27,657 nt of DNA from IMG/VR virus record IMGVR_UViG_2703718778_000008; one strand, 5' to 3'. The notes beneath the pieces were generated by a model. The model did not search any database, was not told where the DNA came from, and saw nothing but the letters and a program-made list of their open reading frames with translations. The position numbers and the translations under genes were made by a program. Below are positions 3,375-26,665 of this stretch, in pieces. Numbering within the stretch: the first letter of the stretch is position 1; every line of letters begins with the position of its first letter. This DNA is from a virus (lineage: Duplodnaviria > Heunggongvirae > Uroviricota > Caudoviricetes).

Positions 3375-3883
3375 TGGCGGTACCAAACAAACTTCGCGTT
3401 TTCACGGTGTACATCGATGGCGAAAACAAGCTGGGGCGGGTGACGTCCTTCACGCCGCCTAAACTGACCCGAAAAACGGAGTCCTTCCGTGGTGCCGGGA
3501 TGCCCGGCAGTGTTTCCGTCGACTTTGGTCTTGATGATGGTGCACTGGATCTCTCTTTTGCGGTAGGCGGCGCAGATGCCCACCTTTTCTCCCGTTATGC
3601 CGGGTCACTTGATGAAGTCTGTCTTCGCTTTTCCGGTGAGTACTATTCGGATGCGGATATCAGATATGTGGATATTGAGGTCCGCGGGCGCATCACTGAA
3701 ATCGATATGGGGGAGGCGAAGCAGGGTGAAGACACTGAGCACAGTTATTCGATGAAAAACACCTGGTACAGACTGAGTGTGGACGATCGGGAAAAAATCG
3801 AATTTGATGTGCTGAATTTTATCTGGCGCATTGACGGTAAGGATGTGCTGCCGGATCGCACCCGCTCGATGCTGGGCTTCTGA
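3374..3883 (+). CDS. FII: tail tube protein gpFII (169 aa)
   Basis: Position and size match P2 FII. There is a TAATG stop/start overlap with FI, and GGAGGTGA lies upstream. Confidence 0.9.
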   Translation: MAVPNKLRVFTVYIDGENKLGRVTSFTPPKLTRKTESFRGAGMPGSVSVDFGLDDGALDLSFAVGGADAHLFSRYAGSLDEVCLRFSGEYYSDADIRYVDIEVRGRITEIDMGEAKQGEDTEHSYSMKNTWYRLSVDDREKIEFDVLNFIWRIDGKDVLPDRTRSMLGF

Positions 3884-3900
3884 TTATTGTTTAACAGAGA

Positions 3901-3919
3901 ACGGCGGGGATCCCGCCGT
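3901..3919 (+). promoter_or_regulatory. intercistronic GC hairpin between FII and E
   Basis: ACGGCGGG / CCCGCCGT, an 8-bp perfect stem with no U-tract. It is probably an mRNA stability or attenuation element separating the abundant sheath/tube genes from the downstream genes. Confidence 0.4.
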
Positions 3920-3930
3920 GGAGACTGAAA

Positions 3931-4320
3931 ATGGATAAAGAAACGGAAATGGCCACTGACACTGCCGTCAGTAACGGGGAGGCTTCCGCGGTGGCAGTTG
4001 CCGCTACGGCTGCACCTAAGAACGTGGTGAAGCTGACGGTGCCTGTTGTGCGCGGAGATGTGTCGTACAGTGAAATTAAAATCGGACCGCTGGCGAATCA
4101 GGCCGGATCGCTGCGTGGGCTGTCTTTGCTTGCGCTTTACAACATGAACTGTGATGCCATGGTCACCTGGCTTGCGCGTGTGACAGAGCCAAAACTTAAG
4201 GAGGCCGAAATGTATGCCATGAATACGGCGGATTTTACGGCGCTGAGCTCGGCGGCGGTTAATTTTTTCGCACCCTCGGGGTCGAATGCACCGGCACCGG
4301 AGAACACGGCAGAGCCGTAA
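3931..4320 (+). CDS. E: tail assembly chaperone gpE (129 aa)
   Basis: GGAG lies 8 nt upstream of the ATG. Contains ...LTVPVVRGD...LRGLSLLAL...EAEMYAMNTADF..L...VNFF, resembling the P2 gpE pattern. It sits directly upstream of the tape measure gene. Confidence 0.85.
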   Translation: MDKETEMATDTAVSNGEASAVAVAATAAPKNVVKLTVPVVRGDVSYSEIKIGPLANQAGSLRGLSLLALYNMNCDAMVTWLARVTEPKLKEAEMYAMNTADFTALSSAAVNFFAPSGSNAPAPENTAEP

Positions 4321-4478: not shown

Positions 4479-7260
4479 TCTGCATATCAGGGTTGCTCTG
4501 GCGGCGGCAGACACCCTGACACAACCTCTCAGGCGCGCCCGCGAAACCGTGGGCGCGCTTTCTGATTCCCTCCGTGAAACTCAGGACTCCATCCGCTCGC
4601 TTGAACGGCAGAGTGAAGCCTTTGCTGCGGCACAGACTAAATTTGACGAAGCCACCCGGAAAATTGCCGCTGTTCAGCAGCAACTGAACCGTCTGCAGCA
4701 GGCGGAGCGTGAGGATACCGTGCTCAGTGAACGGCAGCGTGAAATGATGGCTTCGCTGACCACCCGGCTTGAACGTCTGAACCGGGTGAGGGATGTACAT
4801 CAGCGACGCCTGGAGGATTCACGCCGGGAGCTGGAGAGACACGGTATTGCCGCAGAGGGCAGCAGTCAGACCATACAGGCAGCCATTCGCCGGACGGCAG
4901 AGTATAACGAAGAGCTGGCGCGACAGCGGCAGGCACTCGCACAGGTGACCCGTGCACAGCAACGCTATGAACAGGCGCAGGAGCGACTCGGGCGGATACG
5001 TAATGCCGGTGCGGCGGCACTGGCTGCCGGTGCAGCAGGACTTTACGCTGGCGGGCGTGCTGTTGCGCCGGTGATGGATCTCCAGCGTCATGGTGCCGTC
5101 ATTGCGGCTCAGGCAGGAGAGGGCGCGTCAGATGCCGTGGGGTATACCGGGGTTATAAACCACATGGTTCATACCGGTATCACACCGGATGCACAACTGG
5201 CGGCTGAAGCTGTGGGTGCTGTCCGCTCCACTCTGGGTGGGCTGGGGGCGGTTAGTGAGAATGAACTGACCCGAATCACCCGAAAAATGCTGGATATGCA
5301 GGCCGTGATGGGGGGCGATATCCCGCAGCACATTCAGGCGGCTGCCATCATGATCAAAAACGGTCTTGCACGCAGCAGTGACGAGGCGGTTGATCTGATG
5401 GTGGCGGGCATGCAGCGCATGGGGCCGGTTATGCGCGATGAGCTGCCTGAGATCCTTCACGAGTATTCGACCCATTTTCGTAACATGGGGCTGACAGGGT
5501 CGGAAACCATGACGCTCCTTGCGGATATGGCGCAGCAGGGGAAGTTTGCGCTGGATAAAACCGGCGATGCCATCAAGGAGTTCAGTATTCGCGGCTCCGA
5601 TATGTCAAAGGCGAGTGCTGAAGCGTATGCGCTTATCGGGCTGGATGCAGCCAGGATGTCATCGGCTGTAGCCAGTGGTGGAACGGCTGCACGGGCTGCG
5701 CTGCAGAAAACAGCCTCGGGTCTGTTGCAGATCGTCGATCCGGCTGAGCGGGCCAATGCGGCCATCGCACTTTTTGGTACACCGGTTGAAGATCTGTCTG
5801 TCGATCAAATCCCTGCCTTTCTTGGCGCGCTGGCGCGGGTGTCTGACCGTATGGCTGACGTGTCTGGTGTGGCGGACCGGATGGGGCAAACCCTGCGTGA
5901 CAATCTGAGTGGTGATGTGGCGCGGCTTACCGGGACGTTCAGCGCGCTGAGAAGTGGGATTATCGGGGAGATTACGGACGATCTGCGTGGGCTTGTCCGG
6001 ATGGCCACAGCGTGGGGTGAGCGTCTGCAGGCGTGGGTGAATGCGCATCCGGAACTGGTGCGAATGATTGCGCTGACGACGGGAGCGGTGCTGGCGTTAA
6101 CCACAGCGGTGGGGGCGTTGTCCGTTGCGGCCTGGATGGTTGTCGCACCGTTACTGAAACTGCGTCTGGGGCTTGCCCTGCTTCGCGCGATCCCGGCCGG
6201 ACTCTCCGTTGCCGGTACGCTGTTTGGCGGACTGACGGGTGTGATTTCAGCCGTGGGGGCTGCGCTGGGGGCGCTGACCTGGCCGGTTGTGGTGGCGGTG
6301 GGAGCCCTGGTCGGTGGTGCTCTGCTGATCTGGCGCTACTGGGATCGGGTCAGGGCGTTTGTGAGCGGATTTATTGAAGGGGTACAGTCAGCACTGGCGC
6401 CCTTCATGGCGACAGCCTCCCGTTTTGCGCCGCTGCTGGATCTGGTTTCAGGGGCACTGTCCCGTATTCTGGGATGGTTTAAATCCCTGTTAACGCCAGT
6501 CTCCTCCACGCGTGATTTGCTTGAGCAGTGCACCTCTGCCGGGCAGACGTTCGGGAGCACTCTGGCCGGTGCGTTAGCCACGGTTTTTTCGCCCCTGAAA
6601 GCTCTTATTGACGGTCTGGCGTGGGTGCTGGAAAAACTCGGTGTTCTGCCCGGTGAAGCTGAGCGGGTTAAGCGAAAACTGGATGAGGCCCGTAAAACGC
6701 CGGTGGCATGGGAGTGGGATCCGGAACAGAAAAAAATGGTTCAGAAGGCGTGGCACTGGTCGCCTCCTGGTGGGGCCAGTGTGCCTTCCGGCGCCTCCGG
6801 TACACAGCCTCCGCCGGTGGCGCTCCCTGCGGGGATAGCGCCGGACGGTAACCGTAACGTTCTCCGTCACCTGAAAGGCATTGAGGGGAATACCGGTGGT
6901 CTGCTGGCTGAAAACCGTAAACGTATCGGACCCGGAGATATTGTGTTTAAACATCTTCCACGGGCGCTGGCGGTCCGGGGGCAGTGGCATGAACCTGTCG
7001 TTGCGCCGTCTTCCGGCGGAATGCGCGCGCTGCCACAGGAGGAGATTCAGGTGCAGCAATGGCCGACGGCACGCCCGGCGCCACGAATGCACCAGCAGGA
7101 AACCTTCGCCAGCGCCTTTCAGGGGGAGATACATGTGCATCTTCACGGGGTGAGTTCGTATAATCCCCGGGAACTGGCGCGCATGGTTGGTGACGCTGTC
7201 AGGGCGGAAATGAACAGAATGGCACGTGCCGGAACCGGCAGCTTCCGCGATCGCGACTGA
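4468..7260 (+). CDS. T: tail tape measure protein gpT (930 aa)
   Basis: Size, position, a coiled-coil N-terminal part and a long Gly/Ala/Leu-rich hydrophobic central segment all fit. ATG-ATG at 4468 overlaps the E' stop. The track start at 4432 is a GTG. Confidence 0.9.
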   Translation: MMNNLHIRVALAAADTLTQPLRRARETVGALSDSLRETQDSIRSLERQSEAFAAAQTKFDEATRKIAAVQQQLNRLQQAEREDTVLSERQREMMASLTTRLERLNRVRDVHQRRLEDSRRELERHGIAAEGSSQTIQAAIRRTAEYNEELARQRQALAQVTRAQQRYEQAQERLGRIRNAGAAALAAGAAGLYAGGRAVAPVMDLQRHGAVIAAQAGEGASDAVGYTGVINHMVHTGITPDAQLAAEAVGAVRSTLGGLGAVSENELTRITRKMLDMQAVMGGDIPQHIQAAAIMIKNGLARSSDEAVDLMVAGMQRMGPVMRDELPEILHEYSTHFRNMGLTGSETMTLLADMAQQGKFALDKTGDAIKEFSIRGSDMSKASAEAYALIGLDAARMSSAVASGGTAARAALQKTASGLLQIVDPAERANAAIALFGTPVEDLSVDQIPAFLGALARVSDRMADVSGVADRMGQTLRDNLSGDVARLTGTFSALRSGIIGEITDDLRGLVRMATAWGERLQAWVNAHPELVRMIALTTGAVLALTTAVGALSVAAWMVVAPLLKLRLGLALLRAIPAGLSVAGTLFGGLTGVISAVGAALGALTWPVVVAVGALVGGALLIWRYWDRVRAFVSGFIEGVQSALAPFMATASRFAPLLDLVSGALSRILGWFKSLLTPVSSTRDLLEQCTSAGQTFGSTLAGALATVFSPLKALIDGLAWVLEKLGVLPGEAERVKRKLDEARKTPVAWEWDPEQKKMVQKAWHWSPPGGASVPSGASGTQPPPVALPAGIAPDGNRNVLRHLKGIEGNTGGLLAENRKRIGPGDIVFKHLPRALAVRGQWHEPVVAPSSGGMRALPQEEIQVQQWPTARPAPRMHQQETFASAFQGEIHVHLHGVSSYNPRELARMVGDAVRAEMNRMARAGTGSFRDRD

Positions 7261-22478: not shown

Positions 22479-23522
22479 ATGAGTAAACGCAAAAAATACA
22501 CCGGAAAGCGGGGGCAGGATTCGCTACACGATGCACTGAAATCAACGCCTGCACTCAGCGCATTCACCTTTGATGGGCCCTATGAAGTCAGCCGCATGGA
22601 TCTCCTGGATAACATGTCATGTGCAGATAACGGGCGCTACTTTGATACCCCCATGGACTGGAACGCTATCGCCCGTGCATCCCGTCGTGCGTCCTGGCAT
22701 CAGTCGGCTTTGTACTTCAAGCGCAACGCCCTGAACGGGTGCTTTGTTCCTCACCCTCTGCTGTCCCGCCAGGCGTTTTCAGCCTTTGCGCTCGACTGGT
22801 TTGTGTTTGGTAATGCCTATCTTGAAGTGCGGCGTAACAGGCTGGGGGAACCACTCCTGCTTCGCCCGGCACTGGCAAAATATACACGCAGGGGAAGTGA
22901 CCTGGATACCTACTGGTATCTCAACGACGACGGTACGGAGTTCAGTTTCAGGAAAGGGACTGTGTGCCACGTGCTTAATCCTGATATTAATCAGGAGATC
23001 TACGGGATGCCGGAATATATCGGCGGGTTGCTGTCTGTCAGCCTGTCAAACTCAGCGGATACATTCCGCAAGCTCTACTACGATAACGGCTCGCATGCCG
23101 GGTGTATTATCTATGTAGGCACACCTCAGGCGAATGCGGAAAGTGTCGAGGCCATTAAAAAAACGCTTACGGATTCCCGTGGTCGCGGGGCGTTTAAAAA
23201 CCTGTTTCTTCATGCGCCGGGTGGTGGCAAGGATGGTGTGCAAATACTGCCGTTCCAGCAGATAACCGCAAAGGATGAATTCCTGAACATCAAGGGGAGC
23301 GCCCGCGACGATATCCTTGCTGCCCATCGTGTACCACCTCAACTGATGGGGGCAATGCCTGACGGGAATGCGGCGTTTGGTGACGTTGAGAAAGCGGCGA
23401 GGGTGTTTTTCATCAACGAGTTGCAACCTGTCATGGAGGCCATGAAGCATGTCAATGAATGGCTTGGCGTTGAGGTGATGCGCTTTAACCCCTATGCCCT
23501 GCTTCTGGATAACGCCAGCTGA
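22479..23522 (+). CDS. Q: portal (capsid vertex) protein gpQ (347 aa)
   Basis: Follows P by 5 nt. Size matches P2 gpQ, and the pattern looks conserved (...YFKRN.L...F......LSR..F..FALD...FGNAYLE...N..G....L......). Confidence 0.92.
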   Translation: MSKRKKYTGKRGQDSLHDALKSTPALSAFTFDGPYEVSRMDLLDNMSCADNGRYFDTPMDWNAIARASRRASWHQSALYFKRNALNGCFVPHPLLSRQAFSAFALDWFVFGNAYLEVRRNRLGEPLLLRPALAKYTRRGSDLDTYWYLNDDGTEFSFRKGTVCHVLNPDINQEIYGMPEYIGGLLSVSLSNSADTFRKLYYDNGSHAGCIIYVGTPQANAESVEAIKKTLTDSRGRGAFKNLFLHAPGGGKDGVQILPFQQITAKDEFLNIKGSARDDILAAHRVPPQLMGAMPDGNAAFGDVEKAARVFFINELQPVMEAMKHVNEWLGVEVMRFNPYALLLDNAS

Positions 23523-23587: not shown

Positions 23588-24091
23588 TTAACGGAATGCG
23601 GATGGCGTTCTTCTTTGCAGCTTGCTGATAATATGCATCTTCATACTGTTTACTATCGGCAGCCATTCCCTGTCACCGTCTCCGTTGATGACCACGCGAA
23701 TGGAGGTATCATCTTCCACGCGAACCCGAAGAGATACACCGTCTTTTCCGACGGAATGTAACTCCATTGCCAGGACTATGTTTACCGACTCTCCTTCATC
23801 GTGTGAGTCAACCCATGTTCTTACAGCCATCCGGAATATGTTATCTGTGTCGGTTGCAATCATATTTACCGGAAATGGCCTGAAGTCCCGATCGTTTCTG
23901 CACGGAAACCCCGTATCAACGTAACGATGATGCTCGCCGTCTTTGTCTTCCCATGTCTCTGAAGGCAATTCCAGCCACTGCTCATAAAAAGCAACCAGCT
24001 TTTCAGCCTGATTGCGCAGAATCCCTGTAACCTCCCGCCTCGCGTCCCGGCTCTTTTTGTTTGCCAGGTACAAATCGCGAAAATGGCTCAT
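23588..24091 (-). CDS. hypothetical protein, 167 aa, no family recognised (orphan cargo between portal gene and cos)
   Basis: Clean ORF with SD AAGGAGA 6 nt upstream of the ATG at 24091. A private AT-rich upstream region (24100-24240) contains sigma70-like hexamers. The product is soluble and slightly acidic. No motif recognised. Confidence 0.6.
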   Translation of the reverse strand: MSHFRDLYLANKKSRDARREVTGILRNQAEKLVAFYEQWLELPSETWEDKDGEHHRYVDTGFPCRNDRDFRPFPVNMIATDTDNIFRMAVRTWVDSHDEGESVNIVLAMELHSVGKDGVSLRVRVEDDTSIRVVINGDGDREWLPIVNSMKMHIISKLQRRTPSAFR

Positions 24092-24273
24092 GTCGCTCTC
24101 CTTTGGTCTGTTTATGCCAGCCTGTATTCTGCGCTCACCTCATATTGTGCGCAAGTTTTCACCCGTGAATGACTGATACTTTAAATTCTATTAACTTTAT
24201 GATTTCAGTGATTTTTGTCTCTCTTTTTTATCCCGTTCGTCACGTCCGTTTCCCTCCCGATCTCCGACCTCGC

Positions 24274-24300
24274 CAGACGCAATCAGACGCATTCTGACGG
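24274..24300. repeat. three 10-bp-phased direct repeats, CAGACGCA / CAGACGCA / CTGACGG
   Basis: Copies start at 24274, 24284 and 24294, so the period is exactly 10 bp. They lie about 115 bp to the Q-proximal side of the best cos candidate. Confidence 0.6.
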
Positions 24301-24413
24301 CCTGTTTCCCTGACCATGTTTTGATGTGGTTTTTCAAAACTGGCTTCACTGCGCGCGTATCACGCGCAATACGACCCCAAATAAAGCAACCTGCCTTCCA
24401 CCCCTCAATTCGG

Positions 24414-24432
24414 GCGCCCTTCCCTCGTCGCC
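24414..24432. other. putative cosN (19-nt cohesive-end sequence), reverse complement GGCGACGAGGGAAGGGCGC
   Basis: Matches 13/19 positions of the P2 cohesive end as I recall it (GGCGAGGCGGGGAAAGCAC), including both termini, and in the orientation expected next to Q. It lies in a ~500-bp GC-rich non-coding tract. Not verifiable without a comparison or an end-mapping experiment. Confidence 0.35.
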
Positions 24433-24530
24433 TGCGCGCTGCAATTGCCTCGTTTTTCGTGCACCGTGCAAAGTGGCTTCAGCCCGCGCCGTTACTGGGC
24501 TGAGTGGGGATGAAACACATAAGAAAAATT

Positions 24531-24560
24531 GTGCAATTTCGTGCACTTTTGTGCAGTTTG
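24531..24560. repeat. three tandem 10-bp repeats, GTGCAATTTC GTGCACTTTT GTGCAGTTTG (two more GTGCA copies at 24459 and 24466)
   Basis: The period is exactly 10 bp, with a T-tract in each unit, which predicts an intrinsic bend. The repeats end 15 bp upstream of the TTGACA at 24575. Confidence 0.6.
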
Positions 24561-24574
24561 AAACGGGTATCTGT

Positions 24575-24604
24575 TTGACACTGGTACTTACTTTGCGCTA
24601 ACTT
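24575..24604 (+). promoter_or_regulatory. candidate sigma70 promoter, TTGACA-N18-TAACTT
   Basis: A perfect -35 hexamer at 24575-24580, with a -10-like TAACTT at 24599-24604. The predicted TSS is near 24611. It is the only plausible promoter upstream of the 24806 gene. Confidence 0.35.
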
Positions 24605-24711
24605 TACTCGACCAGAAATTTCAATGAATCGGATGAGGTTGTTTGTCATACGACCTCGGTTAGCTAGGTTGCCTTAATCAAAAGGCATGTTTGATACTGG
24701 AGGAGGTTAAT

Positions 24712-24747
24712 ATGAATAAAGCATTTGACGAATTTGATGGATTCTGA
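24712..24747 (+). CDS. leader sORF, 11 aa (MNKAFDEFDGF)
   Basis: A very strong SD, GGAGGAGG (24699-24706), lies 5 nt upstream of the ATG. TGA at 24745-24747. Too short to assess coding potential. Confidence 0.3.
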   Translation: MNKAFDEFDGF

Positions 24748-24765
24748 ATGTGTTAACCTCGATAA

Positions 24766-24794
24766 GGCGGAGACTGATCTCCGCCTTTTTTATT
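24766..24794 (+). terminator. rho-independent terminator 12 nt upstream of the membrane-protein ATG
   Basis: GGCGGAGA-CTGA-TCTCCGCC (an 8-bp stem with a tetraloop) is followed by TTTTTTATT. Confidence 0.8.
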
Positions 24795-24805
24795 GGTAAA
24801 GAAAT

Positions 24806-25309
24806 ATGGCTATGGACTCAGTAACGATACAAATCATTAGCAATATGATAGTCCTGTTTGGTGTCATTGTTGCTATCTGTACAATTATCTATAACGTTCG
24901 TACGGCAAAAAAAACACAAACCGCTAATTTTTTATTTGAAAGTCGCCAGGATAAGGAATACCTGGAATCATTACATCTCCTCAGGAGAATTCATCGCTCA
25001 GGGAAATCGTTTCGTGCTTATGTTTTTCCTTGTGAAGGCGGGGCTATTACGGAAGAGGAGATGACCGAACGTCGCAAGTTTCAGTACATTCTTAACTTTT
25101 ACGAGAGAGTTGCAGTTAGTATCCGTGAAGGTATTTATGATGAAAGGATGATCAAACGAACGTCCTTTACAACGATTATTACAACTTATGATATTGCAGA
25201 ACCCCTGATTAAGGCTATCAGAGAAGATACTCAATCAAAAACAGCGTACCAGGAGTTTGAATGGCTGGTAAAACGATGGAAAGCTCGTCCTCTTGATAGG
25301 GATGTGTAG
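24806..25309 (+). CDS. hypothetical N-terminally membrane-anchored protein, 167 aa (AT-rich cargo in the P2 old/tin position)
   Basis: One TM helix (IQIISNMIVLFGVIVAICTIIY) is followed by a ~135-aa charged helical domain. GC is clearly lower than in the flanking phage genes. A hairpin follows the stop. It vaguely recalls small uncharacterised DUF-type proteins from phages, but no confident family assignment is possible. Confidence 0.75.
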   Translation: MAMDSVTIQIISNMIVLFGVIVAICTIIYNVRTAKKTQTANFLFESRQDKEYLESLHLLRRIHRSGKSFRAYVFPCEGGAITEEEMTERRKFQYILNFYERVAVSIREGIYDERMIKRTSFTTIITTYDIAEPLIKAIREDTQSKTAYQEFEWLVKRWKARPLDRDV

Positions 25310-25324
25310 TTTATTTCTTGCATT

Positions 25325-25351
25325 AGAGCGAGGTTATTGGTGCCTCGCTCT
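25325..25351. terminator. hairpin between the convergent membrane-protein gene and the SSB-like gene
   Basis: AGAGCGAGG (25325-25333) / CCTCGCTCT (25343-25351), a 9-bp stem. A weak T/A run follows on the plus strand. Confidence 0.55.
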
Positions 25352-25356
25352 TTAAA

Positions 25357-25674
25357 TTATCGAGCCGTTCTTGCGCTCATGATGCTTTGCGCCAGCAACT
25401 GCCAGCCCTCTTTCTGTTGCCCGCGCTTGTCCTGATACCTGTTTACCTGCAAGTTTCCGTGCACCAGAATCAGATCGCCTTTTCTGTGTTTTGCCAGTTC
25501 TTCGTGCTGCTTCCCGAATGCAATAAGGTAAAGCCACATTGTGGTTGGCTGTTCTGCGCCATGGCAGGGTAGTGATACCGCCAGTTGTGCCGTTGTGACG
25601 TTGGTTCCTTTGGTTGTTCTCCTTGTGTTCGGGTCTGCTGCCAGTCGTCCCTCTGTTGCAACCTGTGTTGGCAT
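25357..25674 (-). CDS. SSB-like OB-fold single-stranded DNA-binding protein, truncated form (105 aa)
   Basis: GRLAADPNTRRTTKGTNVTTAQLAVS...W..LIAFGKQHEELAKHRKGDLILVHGNLQVNRYQDKRGQQKEGWQLLA parallels E. coli SSB ([26 protein letters not shown]...[49 protein letters not shown]). The acidic C-terminal tip is absent. Confidence 0.7.
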   Translation of the reverse strand: MPTQVATEGRLAADPNTRRTTKGTNVTTAQLAVSLPCHGAEQPTTMWLYLIAFGKQHEELAKHRKGDLILVHGNLQVNRYQDKRGQQKEGWQLLAQSIMSARTAR

Positions 25675-25706
25675 ATTTGTCTCCCGTGTTGGTTTTATTG
25701 TTGGGG

Positions 25707-26045
25707 TTAGATGGCTGGCAGATCTCCGCCAGCGCCGTAGATAAACAGAATTCGCTTCATGATTTCGCTGCGCTTACAGGCTTCGATGACTGATTTTTCC
25801 TGTTGCCATTCTGCCCGTTGCGCCAGCTCCAGTCGTTCCTTTTCCGTTAGCTTCCGGTAATGCGTTATCTTGTCCGTGTACCCGTCCACAACCAGCAGCC
25901 CTTCGCGTACCATCTTCCCGGCGGCCTGATTAATGATGGTCCTTTTCACGCCCAGTTTTTCAACCAGCTCTGGTGCGCTGAAGCGTGCGTGCGTTTCCAG
26001 GTAGCGTAAAATGATTACCTTTCCGGTCATTCTGGGTGTCTTCAT
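25707..26045 (-). CDS. putative winged-helix DNA-binding protein (112 aa)
   Basis: The start at ATG 26045 overlaps the upstream stop (ATGA). ILRYLETHARFSAPELVEKLGVKRTIINQAAGKMVREGLLVV has a MarR/wHTH-like pattern. Family not confirmed. Confidence 0.5.
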   Translation of the reverse strand: MKTPRMTGKVIILRYLETHARFSAPELVEKLGVKRTIINQAAGKMVREGLLVVDGYTDKITHYRKLTEKERLELAQRAEWQQEKSVIEACKRSEIMKRILFIYGAGGDLPAI

Positions 26046-26212
26046 TTGGCGGCTCCTTCGTTGTTCCGGCGTTCGCGGAGTTCGGTCAGTGCTGCCAGTA
26101 AATTTTCCCACCATGTTTCTTCCACAACCGGATTTCGTCGTGAAAGCAGCTGCTGCGCCGACTCAATCATTTTCGTAAGCTCTTTGTCGCTGATCCTCCT
26201 GATGTCGTTCAT
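26042..26212 (-). CDS. hypothetical small protein (56 aa)
   Basis: The ATG at 26212 is preferred because AAGGAG lies 6 nt upstream; the track start at 26251 has no SD. It belongs to the translationally coupled early-operon tail. Confidence 0.45.
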   Translation of the reverse strand: MNDIRRISDKELTKMIESAQQLLSRRNPVVEETWWENLLAALTELRERRNNEGAAK

Positions 26213-26260: not shown

Positions 26261-26665
26261 TTACCTGCGTGATTGCCTGCTGGCGGCCGAATGCACATAG
26301 CGGACAATTGCCGCTTTTCGGTTAACGACGGCCAGCGTTCTTGCCAGTTCTTCGTTGAGTTTTCTGGTCTGTTTTTCGTGGTATGCCTGCATGATTTTTC
26401 CTACGGGAGTCAGTGGTTCAGGCTCTGATATGGCGCGACGAGGGCGCACGGCAACGATGAATGCGCTTCTGTCGGTGTTGATTCTTGCAGTCAGGATGTC
26501 GGTCATAACGGTGTCTGTGCTGCGATCGGGACTGGCGATCGTGATTTCCAGTTCGTCGCCTGGCTGCGGTCGAACACTGACGCCGCTCAGTGTCAGTGCC
26601 GGAATGCGTGCGTTCATGATGGTGCTGAAATCATGGCGCTGGAGTACGCAATGGAATCGTGTCAT
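26261..26665 (-). CDS. hypothetical protein (134 aa)
   Basis: There is an ATGA start/stop overlap with gene A. No family recognised. Confidence 0.5.
   Translation of the reverse strand: MTRFHCVLQRHDFSTIMNARIPALTLSGVSVRPQPGDELEITIASPDRSTDTVMTDILTARINTDRSAFIVAVRPRRAISEPEPLTPVGKIMQAYHEKQTRKLNEELARTLAVVNRKAAIVRYVHSAASRQSRR

Follow-up and report, generated by a model that had tools for sequence, protein, structure and literature searches.

A conserved micropeptide gene and an intrinsic terminator precede the gene for a predicted membrane-anchored DUF4760 protein in a P2-like cargo slot

IMG/VR record IMGVR_UViG_2703718778_000008 is a 27,657-nucleotide (nt) stretch of DNA from a virus of the Caudoviricetes (Duplodnaviria; Heunggongvirae; Uroviricota), and the whole of that stretch is referred to here as the window. 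Positions 24560-25366 hold a small cargo cassette in which a candidate promoter, a micropeptide gene, an intrinsic terminator, a gene encoding a DUF4760 protein and a 3' hairpin follow one another. Sequence comparisons indicate that the micropeptide gene and the DUF4760 gene are almost always found as a pair, across Proteobacteria and beyond, and that the terminator between them is under selection in phage-borne copies. We tentatively read the cassette as a two-gene moron whose peptide, produced in excess by way of the terminator, binds and restrains a membrane-anchored DUF4760 protein used in exclusion or abortive infection; taken whole, this reading seems to us possible, though somewhat short of probable. 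The features of the cassette are as follows.

24560-25366, + strand: variable cargo cassette (moron); conservation of the flanks ends at 24559 and resumes at 25367 in about 27 Escherichia coli prophages
24575-24604, + strand: candidate sigma-70 promoter, TTGACA-N18-TAACTT (-35 at 24575-24580, -10 at 24599-24604), read from the sequence, with a predicted start near 24611
24611-24698, + strand: untranslated 5' part of the leader, predicted to form two local hairpins; not conserved
24699-24706, + strand: strong Shine-Dalgarno (SD) sequence of the micropeptide gene, GGAGGAGG
24712-24747, + strand: micropeptide gene, 11 codons plus TGA, MNKAFDEFDGF, its motif conserved in DUF4760 loci
24753-24760, + strand: anti-SD sequence, TTAACCTC, which pairs with 24703-24710 (GAGGTTAA) and encloses the micropeptide gene
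24764-24791, + strand: intrinsic terminator, 10-base-pair (bp) stem at 24764-24787 (AAGGCGGAGA-CTGA-TCTCCGCCTT) and T6 run to 24791, -17.7 kcal/mol
24806-25309, + strand: DUF4760 gene (Pfam PF15956, phrog_2284), 167 amino acids (aa), N-terminal membrane anchor and a helical bundle predicted to be cytoplasmic
25325-25352, + strand: hairpin after the DUF4760 stop, rich in guanine and cytosine (GC), AGAGCGAGG...CCTCGCTCT and then TTTAAATTAT, RNAfold -17.6 kcal/mol; probably the 3' terminator of the cassette, judging from its predicted fold, and not reported by the terminator scanner

The 11-codon small open reading frame (sORF) and its strong SD sequence, both picked out in an earlier note on this DNA, are present, and they proved to be part of a recurrent arrangement. 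Loci encoding DUF4760 relatives were fetched, 43 genomic and 80 viral, and the two-gene module was defined by a same-strand sORF of 7 to 21 codons lying directly upstream and ending [DE]-[EG/V]-[FYWNV]-[DEG]-[GWD]-[FYVLCI]. An sORF ending [DE]-[EG]-[FYW]-[DE]-G-[FYV]-stop preceded DUF4760 in all 37 evaluable genomic loci and in 77 of 78 viral loci, ranging from Enterobacterales to Acidobacteriota. Because the search pattern was written after seeing the data, a random-window control was run, in which such an sORF turned up in 0.2% of 16,436 random 263-nt windows from the same loci, with only 36 in 846 kb. A strong SD sequence preceded the sORF in most loci, and the rows lacking one reflected a start codon chosen too far upstream.

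Across an alignment of the cassettes of the window, phage Shae_phiSM, E. coli no107 and P88-like phages, the peptide read MNKAFDEFDGF, MKKVFDEFDGF or MKKMYDEFDGF, and the genes encoding these variants differed by synonymous changes and ended in different stop codons. MKKxFDEFDGF occurred in Enterobacterales. Other peptides included MRKFDEYEGV, MMKRIICDEFEWV (Photorhabdus), ...DENDGY (Halomonadaceae) and ...REEYEGI (a Pseudomonas phage), as well as MKGLNEGWDGF (Pasteurellaceae), MTAHREGWDGC (Achromobacter), MTHIRNEGWNG (Zoogloeaceae) and MREGWVD (a metagenome-assembled genome of Acidobacteriota). In 22 class-A genes, aspartate was encoded by GAT (16) or GAC (6), glutamate by GAA (14) or GAG (8) and phenylalanine by TTC (15) or TTT (4), while glycine used all four GGN codons and the stops were TAA (14), TGA (7) and TAG (1). 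Since synonymous codons were freely used at every conserved residue, along with all three stops, selection appears to act on the peptide and not on the RNA sequence. This codon usage indicates that the sORF is a translated micropeptide gene under selection at the amino acid level.

Intact DUF4760 genes without an sORF were restricted to extended forms in Acinetobacter and to a single viral locus, L078. In Acinetobacter phage A3926.3 and its relatives (L011, 3707-4567), DUF4760 formed the C-terminal part of a 286-aa open reading frame (ORF) with an N-terminal extension of approximately 100 aa and no upstream sORF; the extension may replace the peptide. At L078 (~3830-4000), the breakpoint fell inside the terminator, leaving only its 3' arm and T-run before the intact DUF4760 gene. 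A further variant was observed in Enterobacter pulveris (L020, 4923-4970), where the sORF stop was mutated and the peptide extended to MKKAFDEFDGFYIMK, which masks its conserved free C terminus; the anti-SD sequence was lost there and DUF4760 remained intact.

The earlier note had placed an intrinsic terminator directly before the DUF4760 gene, and its position held to within a few bases, the ATG lying 14 nt after the T-run. This terminator was the top match of the scanner, in a region with 9 terminator-like sites against 3.3 expected, and the sORF ends 16 nt before its stem. Between diverged cassettes, the stem showed a compensatory change from an A-T to a G-C pair. On an alignment of 16 enterobacterial loci, 91.7% of cells were paired in the terminator helix and 75.6% in the SD/anti-SD helix (approximately 50% when the partners were slid), each with three compensatory pairs, the paired percentages leaning in favor of a helix that derives from one of the aligned sequences. 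Among the sORF-bearing viral loci found by the first scan, 71 of 75 had a terminator between the two genes. Intergenic terminators occurred in the clade of the window, Halomonadaceae, Pantoea, Photorhabdus and a Pseudomonas siphophage, in spacers of 53 to 128 nt, and their sequences were unrelated between clades, a recurrence that suggests the terminator is under selection in phage-borne copies. Elsewhere the junction took other forms, namely a stop/start overlap (TAATG) in Pasteurellaceae, a gap of 2 to 31 nt in Zoogloeaceae, Achromobacter and Rhodovulum, and a 26- to 27-nt spacer without a hairpin in one enterobacterial chromosomal clade. From this distribution, translational coupling through TAATG looks like the ancestral arrangement.

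The same junction showed one further pattern. Just after the terminator T-run, ATGGATGAAA was common to L013, L015 and L016 (~4980-5003) and to other enterobacterial loci. In some of these it opens a mini-ORF of four to five codons whose stop overlaps the DUF4760 start (ATGA or TGATG), and the corresponding ATG of Shae_phiSM shares the DUF4760 reading frame. This pattern was inconsistent across loci and absent from the window.

How the DUF4760 gene is transcribed follows from this layout. The promoter proposed in the earlier note, TTGACA-N18-TAACTT, is present at 24575; its -10 element matches the consensus at only three of six positions, and it fell below the threshold of the consensus scanner. 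Two diverged cassettes, those of Shae_phiSM and P88-like phages, keep it as TTGACA-N18-TAATTT and TTGACC-N17-TAGTTT. That DUF4760 has no room for a private promoter was borne out, as none plausible was found in the 14 nt before the ATG, in the sORF or in the terminator region. With the terminator standing between DUF4760 and the only conserved promoter, DUF4760 would have to be expressed by read-through, as had been proposed; over 70 independent phage loci show the same layout.

The 8-bp pairing previously said to bracket the sORF was likewise upheld, the GAGGTTAA/TTAACCTC duplex being predicted at -14.7 kcal/mol (z = -4.3 against shuffles). The whole leader (24611-24796) folded at -56.6 kcal/mol (z = -3.7 against shuffles). 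Homology to the E. coli and P88-like cassettes begins at the SD sequence, only from 24700; approximately 56 nt of the 5' leader is missing from P88-like cassettes and its two hairpins are not kept in Shae_phiSM. The 5' half of the leader (24611-24698) is thus probably dispensable, as far as these alignments indicate. SD sequestration was strong in the window and absent from some loci. In Rfam, the only match was a sub-threshold one to isrP, a Salmonella island small RNA (24723-24791; 27.6 bits against a gathering score of 45), which rests on a UUAACC motif and on the similarity of a GGCGGA...UCCGCC terminator. IsrP may derive from the leader of a related cassette, or the match may be due to chance.

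The 167-aa ORF at 24806-25309 (+) was confirmed, with a second ATG at 24812 that is used as the start by PGAP and by P88-like homologs. It had been described as an orphan with no recognizable motif, which no longer stands. The protein belongs to Pfam DUF4760 on a full-length match (E = 2.7e-35; 122 bits, cut-off 25), its residues 14-158 aligning with positions 2-141 of the 141-position profile, and it matched phrog_2284 at E = 2.4e-68. RefSeq annotates the identical gene as encoding a DUF4760 protein. An exhaustive profile search (E <= 1e-3) recovered 2,126 clusters at 50% identity, nearly all stand-alone proteins of 150 to 200 aa, and almost all of the top 150 representatives measured 145 to 200 aa. 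Consistent with the single N-terminal transmembrane helix that had been proposed, we found one hydrophobic segment (residues 10-28; Kyte-Doolittle mean 2.71), the remainder being helical. With no lysine or arginine before this helix and three in the 16 residues after it, the positive-inside rule leads us to expect an N-out/C-in topology.

The cassette has the composition and position expected of phage cargo. Its GC content (0.397) is below that of the window (0.545) and of its flanks (0.49 and 0.53), in line with the low GC content noted earlier. It lies between the portal and replication endonuclease genes, which places it in the P2 hotspot, as had also been suggested. The surrounding features are given below.

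22479-23522, + strand: portal gene (PF04860; gpQ position)
23588-24091, - strand: conserved hypothetical gene, 167 aa (phrog_5091; no Pfam match)
24529-24559, strand not assigned: three copies of TTGTGCAATT with a 10-bp period (Tandem Repeats Finder), a backbone element forming the left edge of the slot, outside the cargo
25357-25674, - strand: SSB gene, 105 aa, without the acidic C-terminal tail
25707-26114, - strand: MarR-type winged-helix gene, matching the PHROG "Ren-like exclusion protein"
starts at 26662, - strand: gpA-type replication endonuclease gene (phrog_91)

Comparison with other prophages substantiated the idea of a variable slot. The flanks (window 24100-24559 and 25367-25700) matched 30 E. 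coli genomes, two with an identical cassette and about 27 with other cargo, which was an HVO_A0114 and TumE pair, a 178-aa hypothetical protein or no annotated gene. The same slot is taken by diverged versions of the cassette in P88-like and Xuanwuvirus phages, whose backbone carries ParM/ParR instead of SSB/MarR. Related cassettes were found in 297 of 5,426 complete E. coli genomes (5.5%), always on the chromosome and all in prophage-type contexts. In the P88-like cassettes L007 and L008 (4538-5380), an extra 280-aa ORF on the same strand directly followed DUF4760; it had no NCBIfam match and may be an accessory third gene of that lineage.

Decayed 5' or 3' remnants of the cassette were also observed beside other cargo in P2-like hotspots (L038, L050-L052, L054 near 5000, and L135), in Trabulsiella, Symbiopectobacterium, Klebsiella and E. 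coli STEC2018-553. In L135 (2480-2610), the sORF start was lost, the 3' arm of the terminator was eroded and DUF4760 was cut after approximately seven codons. Such remnants appear to have been left when recombination inside the cassette replaced the cargo. We looked in them for the asymmetry of a degraded toxin beside an intact antitoxin and found both parts lost.

Several observations concern the edges of the slot. The TTGTGCAATT repeats are kept in all P2-like relatives irrespective of cargo, even next to cassette remnants, and their TGTGCA cores include a GTGCA...TGCAC dyad; possible roles are regulation of the backbone, a terminase or cos-accessory function, and anchoring the recombination that exchanges cargo. 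The P2 cos 19-mer was not found in a search allowing up to three mismatches, which leaves the putative cos of the earlier note unlocated. The hypothetical gene at 23588-24091 (-) is missing from some related prophages (e.g., L005) and could be another variable element, located across cos from the cassette. The C terminus of the micropeptide, FDEFDGF, loosely resembles DFDDDIPF, the C-terminal tip of E. coli SSB, probably by coincidence.

Morons, in the sense of Hendrix and Juhala, are autonomous units with their own promoter and terminator and an atypical composition, inserted between conserved phage genes. The cassette has a candidate promoter (24575-24604), a 3' hairpin (25325-25352) and a GC content well below that of the window, and it lies between conserved phage genes. 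In other phages the module sits downstream of cI (Pseudomonas phage D14E) or adjoins the integrase gene (Alteromonas phage P24), and in lambdoid-type viral contigs it follows an anti-repressor (Ant) gene, lies between minor tail genes and a lipoprotein gene, or follows a major tail gene. Sites next to cI, integrase, anti-repressor and tail genes are classic moron positions. Low GC content, a variable slot and these other positions together support the moron reading.

Rousset et al. (2022, PMC9122126) set the limits of the P2 hotspot at gpA and gpQ, in the cos-proximal part of the genome. Besides anti-phage systems, it holds non-defense cargo, of which partition systems and cytolethal distending toxin are examples, and Table S5 of that study lists "DUF4760 + StbA + Plasmid_stab_B...", the word DUF4760 occurring 197 times (PMC9122126). 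Known cargo systems of this hotspot, among them old, tin, the DUF4238 system, DprA-PRTase and TIR+TM, share with our cassette the gpQ-gpA slot, low GC content and rapid swapping; unlike DUF4760, which is absent from the table of evaluated systems, they have demonstrated anti-phage activity, and the micropeptide partner is unmentioned (PMC9122126). In the searchable literature, the name DUF4760 appeared in a single, unrelated main text and the micropeptide strings in no relevant paper, and neither a 2025 survey of TIR and Thoeris nor a 2026 paper on the P2 and P4 hotspots mentions DUF4760 or the micropeptide. That DUF4760 exists as a family and occurs in the P2 hotspot is already known. Undescribed in that literature are its conserved partner micropeptide, the terminator that recurs between the two genes, and the resemblance of its predicted fold to the EP domain, taken up below.

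How a peptide-restrained DUF4760 protein might work can be laid out step by step. Most transcripts would end at the terminator (24791) and encode the peptide only, and a minority would read through into DUF4760; since read-through would supply little DUF4760 mRNA, the peptide would be in large molar excess over its partner, much as for mccA-mccB and for toxin-antitoxin loci in which the antitoxin comes first. The SD/anti-SD helix would close the finished short RNA, tying peptide synthesis to ongoing transcription. The acidic-aromatic C terminus of the peptide, with its free carboxylate, would bind the basic cytoplasmic helical domain and hold DUF4760 inactive; that domain has 26 lysines and arginines, and the peptide has a net charge of approximately -2. 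Were the peptide supply to collapse or the peptide to be displaced, for example on infection by another phage, DUF4760 would act on the membrane and stop the incoming phage, through exclusion or abortive infection, which would benefit the lysogen. Coupling of the two genes in distant clades suggests that both products are needed together, which favors a trans-acting partner over a purely cis-acting leader peptide, for which conservation would be expected in the surrounding RNA. The docking-and-restraint step is the least secure and is drawn from architecture, genomic position and analogy; a role for the cassette in exclusion or abortive infection is plausible but unproven.

A number of results weigh against a restrained defense effector. 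The DUF4760 protein had no match in PADLOC at E <= 1 and none among NCBIfam models. Only 3 of 24 diverse genomic loci were in P2-like prophages, and beyond these three, the 106 neighboring ORFs of the 24 loci showed no enrichment of defense (PADLOC) or prophage genes. Many non-phage loci were small islets beside MFS, nrdB, astB or LysR genes. SD sequestration would cap peptide output, which is awkward for an "excess antitoxin" model, and at L078 DUF4760 has been kept without the sORF, the promoter there also having been lost to unrelated sequence. Finally, unlike typical addiction modules, the module was nearly absent from plasmids (5 of 72,556 records), which also weakens the idea of plasmid addiction.

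The alternative that fares best is that the pair forms a non-defense membrane housekeeping or stress module, with the peptide as a cofactor, substrate or signal of DUF4760, carried by phages as a fitness (lysogenic-conversion) moron. Most non-phage loci are islets between housekeeping genes with no defense genes as neighbors, the family is large and uniform, no defense model matches DUF4760, and the P2 hotspot itself also admits the non-defense cargo mentioned above (PMC9122126). Set against this, the module is found repeatedly at sites where prophages carry exclusion genes and morons (after cI, next to integrase and within the P2 hotspot), turns over rapidly and leaves decayed remnants as defense cargo does, and is patchy, occurring in 5.5% of E. 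coli genomes and there always in prophage-type contexts. On balance, we consider a non-defense module rather unlikely.

It is less likely still that the sORF is a cis-acting arrest leader peptide, in which a cue such as a metabolite, an antibiotic or translation stress would make ...DEFDGF stall the ribosome at the stop codon or close to it, altering termination at the hairpin, or reinitiation at TAATG, and thereby controlling DUF4760 expression, the free peptide having no function. Conservation falls on the final six residues of the peptide, a placement shared with TnaC and other peptides that stall ribosomes at termination. The sORF also ends just short of the terminator stem and is bracketed by the SD/anti-SD helix, and ribosome-controlled termination at an sORF has been documented for mccA (PMC4231749). 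However, the peptide is kept while the RNA downstream of it varies from a 1-nt overlap, through 2- to 31-nt spacers without a hairpin, to 53- to 128-nt spacers with unrelated terminators, the opposite of what classical attenuators show. Judging from footprint sizes, coverage by a ribosome halted at the stop codon would end near 24760, before the stem begins at 24764, and no alternative anti-terminator pairing to the terminator arms was present in the minimum-free-energy or centroid fold of the leader. At the overlapping junctions, a ribosome stalled on TAATG would block, not promote, downstream translation.

We give almost no credence to the remaining alternative, a type III toxin-antitoxin-like locus whose leader RNA would accumulate as an antitoxin neutralizing the downstream protein: the order of promoter, short highly expressed unit, terminator and effector is that of ToxIN and of AbiQ/AntiQ, but the transcript lacks tandem repeats (Tandem Repeats Finder, in agreement with the earlier note), the only repeat being the three TTGTGCAATT copies upstream of the promoter, the 5' leader is not conserved, what is conserved follows codons and not RNA, and Pfam finds only DUF4760, modeled as an all-helical, membrane-anchored bundle with no ToxN or AbiQ match. 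The toxI/toxN likeness drawn earlier thus survives as a layout with a terminator between the units, and fails in that the small unit is a translated peptide and the downstream protein is not ToxN-like; for the same reasons, a leader acting as a structured regulatory RNA or ToxI-like antitoxin was not sustained, and the absence of repeats from the transcript led us to reject the type III reading.

Returning to the peptide-restrained effector, the predicted fold of DUF4760 gave a further lead. The AlphaFold model (40-sequence alignment) had a predicted local distance difference test (pLDDT) score of 87.2 and a predicted template modeling (pTM) score of 0.76, with a long N-terminal helix (residues 5-48) forming the membrane anchor and a stalk, followed by a five-helix bundle. 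In Foldseek, EDS1-family chains, through their EP domains, made up eight of the top nine matches (probability 0.87-0.99, template modeling (TM) score 0.49-0.57, with weak E-values of at least 0.18), and identity in the structural alignments with EP domains was 7 to 14%. A profile of 40 DUF4760 sequences matched no chain in the PDB at E <= 10, and a fold search of the BFVD viral structures returned nothing informative. DUF4760 and the EP domains of EDS1, PAD4 and SAG101 share no detectable sequence similarity. The DUF4760 protein, a single 167-aa domain with a membrane anchor, lacks the N-terminal lipase-like domain of the EDS1 family, whose members act as heterodimers. Plant EP domains bind TIR-made nucleotides, and no TIR gene is linked to the cassette. 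PMC6377607 describes the EDS1 EP domain as having a cavity lined with essential basic residues. The plant literature consulted traces the EDS1 family within seed plants, and we found no paper reporting a bacterial counterpart of the EP domain. The resemblance is best treated as a fold-level lead, common ancestry with the EP domain being unproven.

Pushed further, the lead would make DUF4760 a prokaryotic and phage counterpart of the EP domain, a membrane-anchored receptor gated by a ribosomally made peptide of 7 to 21 residues instead of a nucleotide. Serving as a labile antitoxin or self-signal of extreme shortness, the peptide would be kept in excess by the terminator and linked to transcription by SD sequestration, and its loss or displacement on infection would trigger the effector. 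We hold this extended version to be very doubtful. If it were true, the module would be a new anti-phage or exclusion class with the smallest known protein antitoxin, and would offer the first hint of a bacterial ancestry for the EP domain, all descriptions of which have to date come from seed plants.

The nearest known arrangement is the microcin C operon, in which mccA, a seven-codon sORF, and mccB share one promoter and are separated by an intergenic intrinsic terminator that yields an abundant short transcript and minor read-through (Zukher et al. 2014, PMC4231749). Our cassette has the same sORF-terminator-partner layout, which in mccA-mccB sets a high peptide-to-protein ratio. MccB is an adenylating enzyme, and MccA is its substrate in the making of an exported antibiotic; DUF4760, by contrast, is small, helical and membrane-anchored and has no enzyme signature, and the cassette has no further biosynthetic, export or immunity genes and no upstream anti-terminator that we could find. 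Type III toxin-antitoxin systems share the layout as well; there the antitoxin is a repeated RNA processed by an endoribonuclease toxin, whereas the small unit of the cassette is a translated peptide without repeats. Such systems are carried on mobile elements and act in abortive infection. By analogy, the cassette may be viewed as a small-partner and effector cassette on mobile elements with its stoichiometry set by a terminator.

Small prophage exclusion proteins such as lactococcal Sie2009, T4 Imm and HK97 gp15 are approximately 80 to 190 aa long, have one N-terminal membrane helix, are expressed by the prophage and lie in moron positions beside repressor or integrase genes. DUF4760 resembles them in size, in its single N-terminal membrane helix and in its prophage moron position, and differs in that its soluble domain is predicted to be cytoplasmic. 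Comparisons with Pfam, PADLOC and PHROG revealed no sequence or family link between DUF4760 and these exclusion proteins, and none of Sie2009, Imm and gp15 is known to need a partner micropeptide.

For the DUF4760 family, with its approximately 2,100 clusters and its recurrence in the best-studied phage defense hotspot, these comparisons point to an unannotated partner gene of 7 to 21 codons. Since such sORFs fall below every annotation threshold, clones and screens that start at the annotated DUF4760 ORF would omit half of the system. Microcin C offers one natural case of a terminator setting a micropeptide-to-protein ratio, and the cassette would be the second; the predicted fold provides a lead from a bacterial and phage family to the plant immune EP domain. 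Should the pair be an exclusion or abortive-infection system, its peptide-gated membrane effector would add a mechanism of a new type; should it not be, the pair would still make a clean model for micropeptide function.

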